This document shows positions 1 to 4,947 of a stretch of 4,947 bases of DNA, in pieces (the first letter of the stretch is position 1; each line of letters starts with the position of its first letter). The DNA is from a virus (Duplodnaviria; Heunggongvirae; Uroviricota; Caudoviricetes). The translations under genes were made by a program, and so were the position numbers. The stretch covers positions 1 to 4,947 of IMG/VR virus record IMGVR_UViG_2740892439_000004; one strand, written 5' to 3'. Under the pieces are notes generated by a model, which did not search any database, was not told the DNA's origin, and saw only the letters and a list, made by a program, of their open reading frames with translations.

Positions 1-51
1 GGACGCAATGCCTGAAATAATTTTTTTGCAAATCACAAAGTCCATTTAATG

Positions 52-76
52 AGCCTCGCGATGCGGGGCTTTTTTT
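52..76 (+). terminator. rho-independent (intrinsic) terminator
   Basis: Inverted repeat agcctcgc / gcggggct (8 bp stem with one G-U pair, 3-nt loop gat) at 52-70, followed directly by a T-run at 70-76. The U-tract exists only on the + strand, so it ends a rightward transcript coming from upstream of the window. Confidence 0.6.
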
Positions 77-225
77 ACATCTGAATTTCACAGCGCATCT
101 CACGCGCATATTACATCACCCGAGCCTTTCAGAAAGTTGAGCCTGAGAACTGCCGTATATGGTGGCGACCATCTCGGGGCGGCTTTTCTGTGAGACAGGC
201 TCACTTTCTAAAAGGTAAAGACGCT

Positions 226-714
226 ATGAACCAATTAGAAGAAAAGCTTCAAAGAATGATTTCCTTATACAAGGAAGATAACTGCCAAAAAGTTCCTGAA
301 AACATCGCAGAGTTAATGGAATTGGCAAGTGAATTTTCTGGCATGCTTAAGTCGTCAGGTGTTCGGTCAGCGTTCTTTGTTGAAATGCTGATGCACGGCG
401 GACTTATGGCAACAATGAGACGTGTAATGGAAGACCAGAGAAAAGAACCTCCTCAGGTATACGTTTTGTCATCGAAGAAAACTGGGCTAACCAAAATTGG
501 GTATTCATCCAACATTCCACAACGCATCAAATCGCTTGGCAACTCTGGACCAGACTGCTTGAAGCTTGAGTGCCTGATCCCTGGTGGAAGAGAAACTGAA
601 AACATGCTTCATCGCAAATTTGCCGCAAAGAGAAAGCACGGTGAATGGTTCGCCCTGTCCAAGGATGACATTGAGGGATTGAAATCTGTAGCGATTACTT
701 CTGATGGCTATTAA
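226..714 (+). CDS. T5orf172 / GIY-YIG-like domain protein with an uncharacterised N-terminal helical domain (163 aa)
   Basis: ORF-track frame 190..714. I prefer the ATG at 226 (MNQLEEK...) because AAGG at 212-215 sits about 10 nt upstream, whereas 190 is a GTG with no RBS. The C-terminal half carries the motif series VYVL...GLTKIGYS...RIKSL...ENMLHRKF...GEWF that I recognise as the T5orf172 (PF10544-type, GIY-YIG-related) fold. Very AT-rich codon usage compared with the lambda structural genes downstream. Stop TAA at 712-714. Confidence 0.75.
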   Translation: MNQLEEKLQRMISLYKEDNCQKVPENIAELMELASEFSGMLKSSGVRSAFFVEMLMHGGLMATMRRVMEDQRKEPPQVYVLSSKKTGLTKIGYSSNIPQRIKSLGNSGPDCLKLECLIPGGRETENMLHRKFAAKRKHGEWFALSKDDIEGLKSVAITSDGY

Positions 715-753
715 TGCTTGTTTAGAGCAATTTTCATAACAACTCTTCATTAC

Positions 754-783
754 AAAGCCCATCTACTGGTGGGCTTGATAATG
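754..783. repeat. hairpin repeat copy 1 (stem aagccca/tgggctt, then gataatg)
   Basis: 7-bp stem 755-761 pairs with 770-776 around an 8-nt loop, followed by GATAATG at 777-783. Lies between the convergent 226-714 gene and the minus-strand region. A second copy with the same architecture is at 1111-1143. Confidence 0.4.
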
Positions 784-1028
784 AAACCGTGATTTACATC
801 CCCACAATCCGGGTATGTAAAAGATAGTTCAGGCGAGAACGGATTTAACTAAATCTGTGCGCCACCAGTTAACGGCAGTACCACGAAACAACCCAAGCCA
901 GTAAGTGGGGAAATAACACCGGCAGCCACTGAAAGATGAACCTCCTGCCTTATGGCAAAAAAGATTCTTTGTGGTGGCGGACTGATGGAAAGACATCCTA
1001 ATTTCAGCCAAACATTGAAGGAGTTGTT

Positions 1029-1100
1029 ATGTCAGCAGAAGGTTTCAATAACCCATCAAAATTCCGGGATGAGTGGGATAGCAGCGTAAAGAGTAAGTGA
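1029..1100 (+). CDS. candidate small ORF (23 aa, MSAEGFNNPSKFRDEWDSSVKSK) with a strong Shine-Dalgarno
   Basis: GAAGGAG at 1017-1023 lies 5 nt before the ATG at 1029, the best SD match in the window. Stop TGA at 1098-1100. Too short for compositional evidence and no clear promoter found. Confidence 0.2.
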   Translation: MSAEGFNNPSKFRDEWDSSVKSK

Positions 1101-1110
1101 TGCCATCACA

Positions 1111-1143
1111 AAAGCCATTCCCTACAGAGTGGCTTTGATAATG
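1111..1143. repeat. hairpin repeat copy 2 (stem aaagcca/tggcttt, then gataatg)
   Basis: 7-bp stem 1111-1117 pairs with 1130-1136 around a 12-nt loop, followed by GATAATG at 1137-1143. Same flanking words as copy 1 (cat-aca-aagcc on the left, gctt-gataatg on the right). On the minus strand the stem is followed by a U-rich run (uuuugugau), so it may terminate the minus-strand genes upstream of it. Confidence 0.4.
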
Positions 1144-1182
1144 GCTTATACCCTACACGGGATAACTTAACTGATATCCCTT

Positions 1183-1347
1183 TTAAAGGATAAAGGTATT
1201 CAAGCCTGACACATCATGCGCTGTATCGTCGCCGTATTCCCGTATTAACAGAGACCGTAGCCCGACGGGGAACTCCTTCTGCGCGAGTGTGCGGGAATAA
1301 TCAAAAACGATGCACACCGGGGTTACCGGGTACACATATTTCATCAT
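1183..1347 (-). CDS. candidate small ORF (54 aa) or gene remnant, below the ORF-track cutoff
   Basis: Minus-strand ATG at 1347 to TAA at 1185-1183 (MMKYVYPVTPVCIVFDYSRTLAQKEFPVGLRSLLIREYGDDTAHDVSGLNTFIL), found by manual translation. Sits 45 bp downstream of the 136-aa gene in a locally GC-richer islet (about 1200-1392). No convincing RBS. Confidence 0.2.
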   Translation of the reverse strand: MMKYVYPVTPVCIVFDYSRTLAQKEFPVGLRSLLIREYGDDTAHDVSGLNTFIL

Positions 1348-1392
1348 GCCAGCGAGTCCGGTTCTGGCACGGAAGAAACCGGACGTTATGAT

Positions 1393-1803
1393 TTAGTGCG
1401 GAAATATTTGTGTAGTGTTCTGAATGTTCTCAGTAAAGAGTAATGAATTATCAAAGGTATAGTAATACCTTTTGTTTTCGTGGATATTTGTAATCCATCT
1501 GAAAACCCCTGCTGTAGCAAGATTTTTCCTGTATTCGTAAAATGATAACTCTCCTGATTTGAATCCTTTTAATGTGGCTTCTATAAGGCATTTATTTTTT
1601 GAAAATCTTACATTTACAACCTTACCCTGTCCTTTTATTAAAACCGTATTATCGTTTTCAAGAACAAGATGAATATTCTCTGTGGCTAAATAGTAAATGT
1701 AATGTGAGACATTGTGACGTTTTAGTTCAGAATAAAACCAGTGATAGTTTAAATTATTTCGCACTTTATCGAATATTTGTTTAAAAATGGCAACCTGAGC
1801 CAT
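1393..1803 (-). CDS. hypothetical protein (136 aa), Tyr/Asn-rich, no family recognised
   Basis: ORF-track frame 1393..1818. I prefer the second Met (MAQVAIFKQ..., ATG at 1803) because GGAAGG lies 7 nt upstream on the minus strand. A 400+ nt open frame in very AT-rich DNA, where stops are frequent, argues for real coding. The antisense + ORF 1599..1784 is treated as a shadow. Confidence 0.6.
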
Positions 1804-1860
1804 TGTAGTACCTTCCATGTGATATGAGGGTACCTAGTCTGCACGATTATCTAAATTGCT

Positions 1861-2094
1861 TCAATCTGGTCTGACCTGCTTTCTGAGCAATTCAGTAATG
1901 TCACTCTTTTCTTTGTTTGCTTCAGGCGAAACTCTTTTTTCTGAGCACAGTCTTCGGCGGCAGGCTTCAATGACCCAGGCTGAGAAGTTCCCAGACCCTT
2001 TTTGATCAAGAGCGATGTTAATTTGTTCAATCATTTGGTTAGGAAAGCGGATGTTGCGGGTTGTTGTTCTGCGGGTTCTGTTCTTCGTTGACAT
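1861..2094 (-). CDS. ribbon-helix-helix (Arc/CopG-like) DNA-binding protein (77 aa)
   Basis: The N-terminal region reads as a beta-strand (RNIRFP), helix A (NQMIEQINIALDQKG), a G-x-N turn, then helix B (NFSAWVIEACRRRL), matching RHH architecture. It is preceded by a basic Arg/Thr-rich tail and followed by a charged C-terminal extension. It lies 57 bp upstream of, and co-oriented with, the 136-aa gene. Confidence 0.6.
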   Translation of the reverse strand: MSTKNRTRRTTTRNIRFPNQMIEQINIALDQKGSGNFSAWVIEACRRRLCSEKRVSPEANKEKSDITELLRKQVRPD

Positions 2095-2163
2095 GAGGTT
2101 GTCCCGTATTCAGTGTCGCTGATTTGTATTGTCTGAAGTTGTTTTTACGTTAAGTTGATGCAG

Positions 2164-2196
2164 ATCAATTAATATGATACCTGCGTCATAATTGAT
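2164..2196. promoter_or_regulatory. imperfect inverted repeat (ATCAATTAatATGA ... TCATAATTGAT), candidate operator upstream of the RHH gene
   Basis: Arms at 2164-2177 and 2186-2196 are reverse-complementary except for a 2-nt indel, centred on tacctgcg, and sit about 70-100 bp upstream of the minus-strand RHH start in AT-rich DNA. No promoter hexamers could be assigned confidently. Confidence 0.25.
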
Positions 2197-2242
2197 TATT
2201 TGACGTGGTTTGATGGCGTAGATGCACGTTGTGACATGCAGA

Positions 2243-2465
2243 TGATAATTATTATCATTTTGCGGGTCCTTTCCGGCGATCCGACAGGTTACGGGGCGGC
2301 GACCTCGCGGGTTTTTGCTATTTATGAAAATTTTCCGGTTTAAGGTGTTTCCGTTCTTCTTCGTCGTAACTTAATGTTTTTATTTAAAATACCCCCTGAA
2401 AAGAAAGGAAACGACAGGTGCTGAAAACGAGCTTTTGGGCCTTTGTCGTTTCCTTTCTCTGTTTT
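2243..2465 (+). other. cos: lambdoid cohesive-end site cos (cosQ-side sequence, cosN, cosB with R3-I1-R2-R1)
   Basis: 2262-2293 reads ttgcgggtcctttccggcgatccgacaggttacg, the lambda right end with two mismatches. 2294-2305 is GGGCGGCGACCT, the lambda 12-nt cohesive end, followed by cgcgggtttttgctatttatgaaaattttccgg. R3-like gtttccgttcttc lies at 2347-2359 and an A/T-rich I1 region at about 2367-2391. R2 (2402-2416, agaaaggaaacgaca) and R1 (2444-2458, tgtcgtttcctttct) are an exact 15-bp inverted repeat. About 95% identical to the lambda sequence as I recall it. A palindrome GATAATtATTATC sits at 2243-2255. Confidence 0.9.
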
Positions 2466-2482
2466 TGGCCGTGGAATGAACA

Positions 2483-2671
2483 ATGGAAGTCAACAAAAAG
2501 CAGCTGGCTGACATTTTCGGTGCGAGTATCCGTACCATTCAGAACTGGCAGGAACAGGGAATGCCCGTTCTGCGAGGCGGTGGCAAGGGTAATGAGGTGC
2601 TTTATGACTCTGCCGCCGTCATAAAATGGTATGCCGAAATCTGGCGGATCCGGCGCGTGAGTTCACCATGA
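2483..2671 (+). pseudogene. nu1: terminase small subunit Nu1, truncated after codon 52 by an internal deletion
   Basis: MEVNKKQLADIFGASIRTIQNWQEQGMPVLRGGGKGNEVLYDSAAVIKWYAE matches the lambda gpNu1 N-terminus (winged-HTH DNA-binding region). After nucleotide 2639 the frame reads IWRIRRVSSP and stops at 2669-2671. Confidence 0.85.
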
Positions 2672-2736
2672 TTCAGTCAGCACCGCTGATGCTGCTGGCT
2701 GACCCTGATGAGTTCGTGTCCGTACAACTGGCGTAA
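2640..2736 (+). pseudogene. E: 3-prime remnant of major capsid gene E (last ~32 codons)
   Basis: The frame ending at TAA 2734-2736 reads ...LADPAREFTMIQSAPLMLLADPDEFVSVQLA, matching the lambda gpE C-terminus (...DPAREFTMIQSAPLMLLADPDEFVSVQLA). It has no start codon and is out of frame with the Nu1 stub. Confidence 0.7.
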
Positions 2737-2777
2737 TCATGGCCCTTCGGGGCCATTGTTTCTCTGTGGAGGAGTCC

Positions 2778-3176
2778 ATGACGAAAGATGAACTGATTGC
2801 CCGTCTCCGCTCGCTGGGTGAACAACTGAACCGTGATGTCAGCCTGACGGGGACGAAAGAAGAACTGGCGCTCCGTGTGGCAGAGCTGGAAGAGGAGCTT
2901 GATGACACGGATGAAACTGCCGGTCAGGACACCCCTCTCAGCCGGGAAAATGTGCTGACCGGACATGAAAATGAGGTGGGATCAGCGCAGCCGGATACCG
3001 TGATTCTGGATACGTCTGAACTGGTCACGGTCGTGGCACTGGTGAAGCTGCATACTGATGCACTTCACGCCACGCGGGATGAACCTGTGGCATTTGTGCT
3101 GCCGGGAACGGCGTTTCGTGTCTCTGCCGGTGTGGCAGCCGAAATGACAGAGCGCGGCCTGGCCAGAATGCAATAA
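2778..3176 (+). CDS. FI: head-tail joining / DNA packaging protein FI (132 aa)
   Basis: MTKDELIARLRSLGEQLNRDVSLTGTKEELALRVAELEEELDDTDETAGQDTPLSRENVL... matches lambda gpFI almost exactly. GGAGGA lies 4 nt before the ATG at 2778. The ORF-track start at 2739 is an upstream in-frame extension. Stop TAA at 3174-3176. Confidence 0.9.
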   Translation: MTKDELIARLRSLGEQLNRDVSLTGTKEELALRVAELEEELDDTDETAGQDTPLSRENVLTGHENEVGSAQPDTVILDTSELVTVVALVKLHTDALHATRDEPVAFVLPGTAFRVSAGVAAEMTERGLARMQ

Positions 3177-3187
3177 CGGGAGGCGCT

Positions 3188-3541
3188 GTGGCTGATTTCG
3201 ATAACCTGTTCGATGCTGCCATTGCCTGCGCCGATGAAACGATACGCGGGTACATGGGAACGTCAGCCACCATGACATCCGGTGAGCAGTCCGGTGCTGT
3301 GATACGTGGTGTTTTTGATGACCCTGAAAATATCAGCTATGCCGGACAGGGCGTGCGCGTTGAAGGCTCCAGCCCGTCCCTGTTTGTCCGGACTGATGAT
3401 GTGCGGCAGCTGCGGCGCGGCGACACGCTGACCATCGGTGAGGAAAACTTCTGGATAGACCGGATTTCGCCGGATGATGGCGGAAGCTGTCATCTCTGGC
3501 TTGGGCGGGGCGTACCGCCTGCCGTTAACCGTCGCCGCTGA
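3188..3541 (+). CDS. FII: head completion protein FII (117 aa)
   Basis: MADFDNLFDAAIACADETIRGYMGTSATMTSGEQSGAVIRGVFDDPENISYAGQGVRVEGSSPSLFVRTDDVRQLRRGDTLTIGEENFWIDRISPDDGGSCHLWLGRGVPPAVNRRR matches lambda gpFII with a few substitutions. GTG start with GGGAGG 4 nt upstream. Confidence 0.9.
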   Translation: MADFDNLFDAAIACADETIRGYMGTSATMTSGEQSGAVIRGVFDDPENISYAGQGVRVEGSSPSLFVRTDDVRQLRRGDTLTIGEENFWIDRISPDDGGSCHLWLGRGVPPAVNRRR

Positions 3542-3552
3542 AAGGGGGATGT

Positions 3553-4130
3553 ATGGCCATAAAAGGTCTTGAGCAGGCCGTTGAAAACCTCAGCCGTATC
3601 AGCAGAACGGCGGTGCCCGGTGCCGCCGCAATGGCCATTAACCGCGTTGCTTCATCCGCGATATCGCAGTCGGTGGTACAGGTTGCCCGTGAGACAAAGG
3701 TACGCCGGAAACTGGTAAAGGAAAGGGCCAGGCTGAAAAGGGCCACGGTCAAAAATCCGCAGGCCAGAATCAAGGTTAACCGGGGGGATTTGCCCGTAAT
3801 AAAGCTGGGTAACGCGCGGGTTGTCCTGTCCCGACGCAGGCGTCGTAAAAAGGGGCAGCGTTCAGCCTGAAAGGTGGCGGCAGTGTGCTTGTGGTGGGTA
3901 ACCGTCGTATTCCCGGCGCGTTTATTCAGCAACTGAAAAACGGCCGGTGGCATGTTATGCAGCGTGTGGCCGGGAAAAACCGTTACCCCATTGATGTGGT
4001 GAAAATCCCGATGGCGGTGCCGCTGACCACGGCGTTTAAACAGAATATTGAACGGATACGGCGTGAACGTCTTCCGAAAGAGCTGGGCTATGCGCTGCAG
4101 CATCAACTGAGGATGGTAATAAAGCGATGA
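3553..4130 (+). pseudogene. Z: tail completion protein Z, disrupted by a 1-nt frameshift
   Basis: 3553-3870 encodes the gpZ N-terminus (MAIKGLEQAVENLSRIS...RRRRRKKGQRS) and then stops. 3885-4130, in another frame, encodes the gpZ C-terminus (LVVGNRRIPGAFIQQLKNGRWHVMQR...HQLRMVIKR). The total span is 578 nt, one short of an intact 579-nt Z, placing a single-base deletion near 3862-3867. Confidence 0.8.
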
Positions 4131-4522
4131 AACATACTGAACTCCGTGCAGCCGTACTGGATGCACTGGAGAAGCATGACACCGGGGCGACGTTTTTTGA
4201 TGGTCGCCCCGCTGTTTTTGATGAGGCGGATTTTCCGGCAGTTGCCGTTTATCTCACCGGCGCTGAATACACGGGCGAAGAGCTGGACAGCGATACCTGG
4301 CAGGCGGAGCTGCATATCGAAGTTTTCCTGCCTGCTCAGGTGCCGGATTCAGAGCTGGATGCGTGGATGGAGTCCCGGATTTATCCGGTGATGAGCGATA
4401 TCCCGGCACTGTCAGATTTGATCACCAGTATGGTGGCCAGCGGCTATGACTACCGGCGCGACGATGATGCGGGCCTGTGGAGTTCAGCCGATCTGACTTA
4501 TGTCATTACCTATGAAATGTGA
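4127..4522 (+). CDS. U: tail terminator protein U (131 aa)
   Basis: MKHTELRAAVLDALEKHDTGATFFDGRPAVFDEADFPAVAVYLTGAEYTGEELDSDTWQAELHIEVFLP... matches lambda gpU. Its ATG overlaps the Z stop (ATGA at 4127-4130), as in lambda. Confidence 0.9.
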   Translation: MKHTELRAAVLDALEKHDTGATFFDGRPAVFDEADFPAVAVYLTGAEYTGEELDSDTWQAELHIEVFLPAQVPDSELDAWMESRIYPVMSDIPALSDLITSMVASGYDYRRDDDAGLWSSADLTYVITYEM

Positions 4523-4529
4523 GGACGCT

Positions 4530-4550
4530 ATGCCTGTACGGAAACATTGA
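4530..4550 (+). pseudogene. V: remnant of major tail protein gene V (start plus 2 codons, then deletion junction)
   Basis: GAGGA RBS followed by atgcctgtac, identical to the lambda V start (MPV). The sequence diverges from lambda at 4540 and the frame stops at 4548-4550 (MPVRKH*). Confidence 0.6.
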
Positions 4551-4947
4551 CTTTATCGAGATCTCGGCGCGCGGTCTGCCTTCTTCGCTTACTGCTGATA
4601 ATGTATCTCGTTACCTGAGTATACGCCGTTTAGGGCCAACCGGGCTAATCAATAGCATGCAAATGCGTTACGGCCTGGTTAAAGATGATGGCTTTATTGA
4701 GGTTTGGGCCTTCCAGCGTGCATTTATCAACGGCGCAAAGGTTGCGGTACTGGCGCAGACGGCACGCACGGAATTATACATTCCAGACGGATTTGTTAAG
4801 CAAACCGCCGCGCCTTCTGGATATGTTGAAAGCCCCGTTGTAAGGATTTACGACCAGTTAAACAAGCCGACTAAAGCAGATTTGGGTCTTTCTAATGCTA
4901 TGCTTACAGGCGCTTTCGGTCTTGGCGGTAGCGGGATAGCAACAACC
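4540..4947 (+). CDS. 5-prime-truncated ORF fragment of unknown function (136 codons, runs off the window end), fused at the V deletion junction
   Basis: Frame 1 is open from 4516 to the window end (...GNIDFIEISARGLPSSLTADNVSRYLSIRRLGPTGLINSMQMRYGLVKDDGFIEVWAFQRAFINGAKVAVLAQTARTELYIPDGFVKQTAAPSGYVESPVVRIYDQLNKPTKADLGLSNAMLTGAFGLGGSGIATT). All three minus-strand frames are interrupted by stops every 180 nt or less here. No start codon with an RBS, and I do not recognise it as a lambda protein. The first in-frame ATG (4657) has no SD. Confidence 0.45.

Follow-up and report, generated by a model that had tools for sequence, protein, structure and literature searches.

A lambda-type cos site joined to the 3′ end of capsid gene E in a very probable decayed DLP12-family prophage at Escherichia coli argU

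The window analyzed here is a stretch of 4,947 nucleotides (IMG/VR record IMGVR_UViG_2740892439_000004, positions 1–4,947) in which a lambda-type cos site and the first codons of Nu1 are followed, with a GGATCC on the joint, by the 3′ end of the major capsid gene E. The locus raises the question of whether this joint was made by assembly, by cloning or by natural deletion, and of whether the remnant around cos still has a function. The evidence below indicates, with high probability, that the window is a decayed allele of a DLP12-family lambdoid cryptic prophage at E. coli argU, from which spontaneous illegitimate recombination removed about 6.7 kb. A deletion of this kind is already known and is textbook prophage decay.

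The left flank of the joint (window 1–2639) had 100% identity with a full-length prophage that occupies the corresponding chromosomal site in E. coli EM18-18-42 (NZ_CP063473.1, referred to as L006), and the portion 1932–2639 was 95.6% identical to lambda. The right flank (2647–4539) aligned with lambda 7071–8964 at 98.2% identity and with L006 9362–11252 at 97.0%. Unlike the window, L006 continues beyond the shared left flank with a complete head module, comprising full nohD/Nu1, A, W, B (the portal gene, frameshifted), C, D and E. There follow FI, FII, Z and U in the same order as in the window and a complete tail module from V through J and lom to stf, then tfa and appY; the cos site is also the same. 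The L006 prophage represents the undeleted form, as a relative and not as the literal parent, since its right flank is only 97% identical. The window lacks lambda 348–7070, a span of 6723 bp (6722 bp when L006 is the reference), and with it the remainder of Nu1, genes A, W, B, C, Nu3 and D, and the greater part of E. The loss of these genes had been put at roughly 6.5–7 kb in the first-pass annotation, an estimate that the lambda alignment bears out. Its reading of the locus as a defective prophage deprived of terminase and head genes by a natural internal deletion likewise agrees with the alignments to lambda and to the same-site full-length prophage, and with the recurrence of the junction. 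The features at and to the right of the joint are as follows.

2483–2639, + strand: Nu1′ (TerS), codons 1–52 plus 1 nt, 100% identical to lambda 191–347 (Nu1 nt 1–157)
2638–2648, + strand: 11-nt scrap of E, AATCTGGCGGA, equal to lambda 6432–6442 (codons N100-L101-A102-D103) and to L006 8723–8733
2646–2651, no strand assigned: GGATCC, made by the E(103)/E(313) joint from GCG-GA (codons 102–103) and T-CCG (codons 313–314)
2647–2736, + strand: E′, codons 313–341 and stop (2734–2736) of major capsid gene E, aligning from lambda 7071
2778–4522, + strand: retained genes FI (2778–3176), FII (3188–3541), Z (3553–4130) and U (4127–4522), in the stretch 98.2% identical to lambda 7071–8964
4530–4539, + strand: V′, codons 1–3 of the major tail gene V, ending at a second deletion joint (4539/4540) into the 3′ part of a side-tail-fibre gene

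In the window Z is frameshifted at 3866–3868 by a 1-bp deletion in a CCC run, which leaves ORFs at 3553–3870 and 3885–4130. The CCC is kept in the near-identical records L001 (strain 300081) and L010, and Z of L001 is intact at 579 nt; the frameshift may be genuine, or it may stem from a sequencing error in the homopolymer. The second deletion, at 4539/4540, removed V to J. The C-terminal side-tail-fibre part joined to V′ (window 4530–4947; L001 24520–27150) was T5 pb1-like with an S74 peptidase domain, and its closest phage match was the stf gene of vB_EcoS-640R1 (95.5%). L001 has an ORF of 876 aa here, which starts with a GTG at 24520 that overlaps the U stop and ends at 27150; RefSeq annotates only 25273–27150 of it.

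On the left side of the joint, the Nu1′ ORF (2483–2671) retains its native ribosome-binding region and encodes 62 aa in all. After residue 52 it is out of frame and closes with 10 non-Nu1 residues (IWRIRRVSSP) before a stop at 2669–2671. The product matched PF07471 at positions 1–52 of 164 (E = 4.7e-30), and its residues 1–52 were identical to the solved TerS DNA-binding domain in PDB entries 7LW0 (56-residue chain) and 1J9I (68-residue chain). The ORF belongs to the N-terminal winged-HTH DNA-binding domain of TerS, minus the last few residues of the crystallized domain. The first 52 codons had been described beforehand as lambda-like and as the DNA-binding domain; the likeness is complete over nt 1–157, and the 52 codons cover most of that domain, not the whole of it as crystallized in the 56- and 68-residue constructs. 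TerS is laid out as a DNA-binding domain, a central oligomerization domain and a C-terminal TerL-binding domain (PMC9026076). The latter two are absent from the Nu1′ ORF, where Nu1 sequence ends after residue 52, and because they are missing Nu1′ is a TerS pseudogene rather than a TerS. RefSeq flags it as an incomplete DNA-packaging protein and annotates both halves, Nu1′ and E′, as incomplete pseudogenes.

On the right side, E′ has no start codon of its own and matched PF03864 at positions 301–328 of 329 with 19.4 bits, under the gathering cut-off of 22.9. A full HK97-fold capsid protein (341 aa) was not found in the window, where only codons 313–341 and a 4-codon scrap of E are left. Nu1 lies in frame 2 and the E remnant in frame 1, and an in-frame Nu1–E fusion protein was rejected because these frames differ. 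The fusion of Nu1 to the 3′ end of E described in the first-pass annotation is thus correct for the DNA and incorrect for a protein. The jump placed there at 2639/2640 does lead to the 3′ end of E, with the number of E codons to be reduced from about 32 to 29 plus the stop, counted from 2647.

The lambda alignment, proposed earlier as a check, identified 2647–2736 as E-derived and also disclosed the source of the bases at the joint itself. A 7-nt stretch, TCTGGCG (2640–2646), is in register with neither flank. The 11-nt scrap spans this filler and 2 nt of microhomology at each end, so that the junction reads Nu1 (to nt 157)/E codons 100–103/E codons 313–341. At the first joint, between Nu1 and E codon 100, the microhomology is AA; at the second, between E codons 103 and 313, it is GA and lies inside an imperfect direct repeat. 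The two copies of this repeat, GCG-GAC-CCG-GC and GGC-GAT-CCG-GC, both encode D-P-A and are exactly 630 bp (210 codons) apart. When random 7-nt fillers were placed between the real flanks and matched against the deleted interval, the 11-mer covering the filler found a match there in 1.4% of trials (p ~0.014). A chance origin is made still less likely by the six bases that follow the 11-mer in E (CCCGGC in lambda), which match the right-hand parent (TCCGGC) at 5/6 positions in lambda and 4/6 in L006. On the 11-mer match and the random-filler control, an untemplated filler was rejected and templating from E codons 100–103 favored.

This structure also accounts for the GGATCC at 2646–2651, the only BamHI site in the window. 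Both lambda and L006 read GGCGATCC at the corresponding position. The peptide ADPAREF across the joint is chimeric (N-L-A-D from E codons 100–103, D-P-A-R-E-F from E codons 313–318), and its E-like appearance comes from the two in-frame E segments that it combines. The site had been regarded as natural on the ground that it falls inside in-frame E-type codons. Natural it is; native E sequence it is not, as the joint itself creates it.

The distribution of the joint was determined by sequence search. Of 5426 complete E. coli genomes, 11 contain the full 111-nt junction segment (2590–2700) without a single mismatch, and a 36-mer spanning the joint matched 2 IMG/VR contigs exactly; the exact junction had no match in GTDB species representatives or JGI metagenomes. 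The carriers, sampled in Africa, Europe, Asia and North America, have human, pig, chicken and frog-farm origins. In all of them the junction lay at the same chromosomal locus, with differing structures downstream. In sister strain GPEC206-621, only ~30 codons of Z remain before a joint into an Rhs/VgrG region, and the appY-ompT-envY-nfrAB segment is absent; in sister strain ES2, Z extends to about codon 116, where a tail-fibre fragment takes over. Since these sisters share the Nu1/E joint and differ downstream, the joint predates the secondary deletions. The further deletions that begin inside Z in sister strains are at L009 9553–10442 and L010 9553–11022; Rhs/VgrG denotes type VI secretion.

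Among complete E. coli genomes searched by megablast, strain 300081 (GCF_052907845.1; human stool, Mozambique) gave a near-identical match to the whole window, with one mismatch and one 1-bp indel, and five further genomes matched at least 80% of its length. The neighborhood in 300081 begins with fimZ, tRNA-Arg, a truncated integrase gene, exo-bet-gam-kil-cIII, IS1, nin-region fragments, rusA and ylcG. It continues with quuD split by IS3, a porin gene, truncated essD, the window, a tail-fibre remnant, appY, ompT and envY. The prophage is therefore inserted between argU (tRNA-Arg) on one side and appY-ompT-envY on the other, which is the DLP12 site of K-12 MG1655. Its backbone is also that of DLP12: rusA, ylcG, quuD, an nmpC-type porin gene, essD, ybcV/DUF1398, ylcI and a Nu1 homologue. 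In the annotation of the 300081 prophage the integrase is truncated and A, W, B, C, D and E are absent; neither a repressor nor O/P genes are annotated. Together with the truncated essD and the IS1 and IS3 insertions, of which the latter splits quuD, these features predict from sequence a prophage defective in excision, replication and particle formation.

DLP12 (qsr′) of E. coli K-12 shares with the window the argU/appY-ompT-envY site, the genes rusA, ylcG, quuD, nmpC, essD, ybcV and ylcI, the cos site with alleles C53T, A73G and T102C, and the Nu1 homologue. The two differ in what each has lost. In K-12, nohD is full-length and part of A survives (aaaD), followed by tfaD, with FI to U gone, an independent deletion from aaaD to tfaD (L008 17355–18098). 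In the window, by contrast, Nu1 is cut at codon 52, the E tail, FI, FII, Z and U are kept, V is joined at codon 3 to the side tail fibre, and a GIY-YIG/T5orf172 gene stands in place of bor. Independent deletions in the head module were also found from Nu1 to D in N1193 (L003 4382–5097) and from A to E in CUPS03 (L004 4284–6476). The N1193, CUPS03 and K-12 deletions and the full-length L006 form a decay series for the DLP12-site prophage, and the head-gene region of this family has evidently been lost repeatedly. The window adds a further deletion allele to a textbook cryptic prophage and matters little beyond bookkeeping. The decay series that it makes with its full-length relative and sister alleles is base-resolved and could mark lineages, and the junction is a natural example of a two-jump, microhomology-mediated deletion that created an engineered-looking restriction site by accident.

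The part of the packaging apparatus that the deletion left behind is the cos site, which comprises the following elements.

2264–2270, + strand: cosQ, GGGTCCT, identical to lambda and 30 bp upstream of cohesive-end base 1, the lambda spacing (we take cosQ in lambda to be 48473–48479)
2294–2305, + strand: cosN core, the 12-nt cohesive end GGGCGGCGACCT, identical to lambda bp 1–12
2343–2358, + strand: cosB R3, 15/16 to lambda bp 50–65, with C53T
2359–2401, + strand: R3–R2 interval, which in lambda holds IHF site I1, with 2 substitutions (A73G, T102C)
2402–2417, − strand: cosB R2, 16/16 to lambda 109–124, in inverted orientation
2443–2458, + strand: cosB R1, 15/16, with C151T at its first base

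The flanks of the cohesive end were identical to lambda for 16 bp to the left and 10 bp to the right, in agreement with the earlier view that cosN is intact. The interval from cosN to R3 has no indel relative to lambda and its spacing is preserved, whereas the R2–R1 spacer has 1 bp fewer than in the phage, a feature common to K-12 DLP12 and the rest of the E. coli prophage copies that were aligned. Across lambda bp 48471 to 176, 11 differences (substitutions or indels) were counted, all 11 of them common to the full-length L006, and several, C53T included and C151T not, are also present in K-12 DLP12. The phage and the window thus share cosQ, the cohesive end, R2, the cosQ–cosN and cosN–R3 spacings, Nu1 residues 1–52 and E residues 313–341, and they differ in the 11 cos-region changes, among them edge bases of R3 and R1 and the shorter spacer, and in the absence of lambda 348–7070 from the window.

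All cosB R-sites had been called intact. This is so for R2; R3 and R1 each carry one edge substitution, and both substitutions are present in L006. R3 occupies bp 50–65, of which TerS contacts bp 55–63 (Murialdo and Feiss, PMC9026076), and changes that make packaging defective lie at bp 56, 58 and 59 (PMC9026076). In the window bp 55–63, including these three positions, are unchanged, and C53T, which is common to K-12 DLP12 and L006, falls outside them. The 7-bp cosQ is a conserved site (PMC4669245), and I1 sits between R3 and R2 (PMC4669245, PMC9026076); a scan with a strict IHF consensus, run on the window without lambda as a control, printed no site in 2359–2401. With cosQ at the correct distance, a 12-nt cohesive end and cosB in the order R3-R2-R1 with R2 inverted, a lambda-type cos is retained at the level of sequence.

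The deletion from Nu1 codon 53 to E codon 312 would have arisen by spontaneous illegitimate recombination, most likely in one template-switching event during replication that made two jumps, each at a 2-nt microhomology. The first of these would have led from Nu1 nt 157 to E codon 100, where some 9–11 nt were copied, and the second would have left E codon 103 for E codon 313 within the imperfect D-P-A repeat. Its product would be an intact cos, the 62-codon Nu1′ ORF, the 29-codon E tail and FI, FII, Z and U, with the terminase, portal, protease/scaffold, decoration and capsid genes gone. The allele would since have been inherited vertically in one E. coli lineage, where it has gone on eroding. 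Both the one-step mechanism and the vertical inheritance are what we infer from the structure and distribution of the joint.

Other origins of the joint were considered. Misassembly into a collapsed or chimeric contig is plausible in principle where a genome holds multiple lambdoid prophages, and the source record has 8 matching places. The chance of such an artefact, which the first-pass annotation had named as an outcome that would overturn its reading, is nevertheless close to nil: 11 complete genomes assembled independently of one another, and 2 IMG/VR contigs, share this very junction, at one locus and with varied structures downstream. A BamHI cloning joint, left by a lambda vector or another laboratory construct, is suggested by a GGATCC that lies exactly on the joint and is missing from parental E. 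E codons 102–103 (GCG GA) and 313–314 (T CCG) fully account for this site, however, and restriction and ligation could not have produced the joint because BamHI sites are lacking at both breakpoints in both parents. The carriers, which came from stool, pigs, chicken and frog-farm sediment, are moreover wild strains, and the left flank is chromosomal DLP12-type DNA, not vector, so that engineering is to be regarded as extremely improbable. The joint is real and natural. A less extreme alternative holds that two deletions followed each other, one an in-frame loss of 630 bp between the D-P-A repeats of E and the other a loss that began at Nu1 codon 53 and reached E codon 100. The joint inside E preserves the frame exactly (210 codons) and sits in an 8/9-nt imperfect direct repeat typical of simple slippage; many independent deletions accumulate in this prophage family, and two steps would leave the same sequence as one. 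Against this, the second deletion would by coincidence have had to end within 11 nt of the first joint, and synthetic queries for each joint alone found neither intermediate among the 5426 complete E. coli genomes. One 100%-coverage match to a synthetic query was dismissed, as it consisted of two pieces spanning 672 bp inside a capsid gene. Because the joints are only 11 nt apart and single-joint intermediates were not found in these genomes, a single event is favored, and two successive deletions are considered rather unlikely.

A further alternative concerns not the origin of the remnant but its maintenance. The cos-Nu1′ block could have been selected and domesticated, either as a packaging signal used in cis by a helper phage, in the manner of a PICI or of 'doc' particles, or as a Nu1 fragment that binds cosB as a decoy. 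The identity to lambda of cosQ, cosN, R2 and Nu1 nt 1–157, the native ribosome-binding region and the presence of nearly the whole crystallized DNA-binding domain in residues 1–52 point in this direction, and the perfect conservation of Nu1 nt 1–157 and of the cos core can be taken as a sign of selection instead of a recent origin. Infecting lambda is moreover known to engage the cos region of DLP12: viable recombinants arise between the phage and the K-12 cos-nu1 region, with junctions concentrated at cos, and the nu1 gene of DLP12 is functional in lambda (PMC3945230). Recency explains the conservation equally well, however, and no special selection is needed because the full-length prophage has the same cos sequence. 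Purifying selection is not inferable because all 11 junction copies are identical over the 111 nt. The Nu1 fragment lacks the end of the dimerizing domain and both downstream domains, quuD, which is needed for late transcription, is split by IS3 in 300081, and no Rpp-like gene, intact integrase or replication module is annotated. Domestication is accordingly given little credence. By analogy with lambda, a terminase of lambda specificity supplied by a co-resident or infecting phage could still bind cosB and nick cosN in cis, and the lambda-like flanks could remain recombination substrates for infecting lambdoid phages, as K-12 DLP12 is (PMC3945230). That such a terminase would go on to start packaging or breaks at cos, or that the 62-aa Nu1 fragment would act as a cosB decoy against lambda-type packaging, is thought very improbable. 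In the former case, packaging or double-strand breaks would proceed to the right, across FI-U and into appY-ompT-envY, a 'doc'-type or lateral-transduction-like mobilization, and in either case the remnant would be a functional, selected element instead of debris. As debris of a decayed DLP12-family prophage, it most likely does nothing.

The window resembles cos-type PICIs of the EcCICFT073 kind in being chromosomal, in lacking its own terminase and heads, and in carrying a lambda-like cosQ and cosN (PMC9026076). PICIs have no lambda cosB, retarget the helper TerS by means of Rpp, and possess a working integrase and replication module (PMC9026076). In the window, by contrast, cosB is lambda-like and truncated Nu1 follows cos, and the integrase of the prophage is truncated. 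Membership among the PICIs or other satellites was rejected on the lack of Rpp, the presence of a lambda-type cosB and the truncated integrase.

Some further observations concern the surroundings of the cos-Nu1′ block. Upstream of the window, the lysis cassette of strain 300081 (L001 19534–20020) has a truncated essD that runs into an Rz-like 'lysis protein', and no rrrD lysozyme gene is annotated in L001, whereas rrrD is present in L006 and K-12. Between the Rz-like lysis gene and ybcV, window 190–714 holds the GIY-YIG/T5orf172-domain gene (PF13455, PF10544), in the place taken by bor/borD in lambda and K-12 DLP12. The only substitution relative to L001, the closest record, is at window 3016, where the window has C and L001 has A; it alters residue 80 of FI, which is S in the window, as in lambda, and Y in L001.
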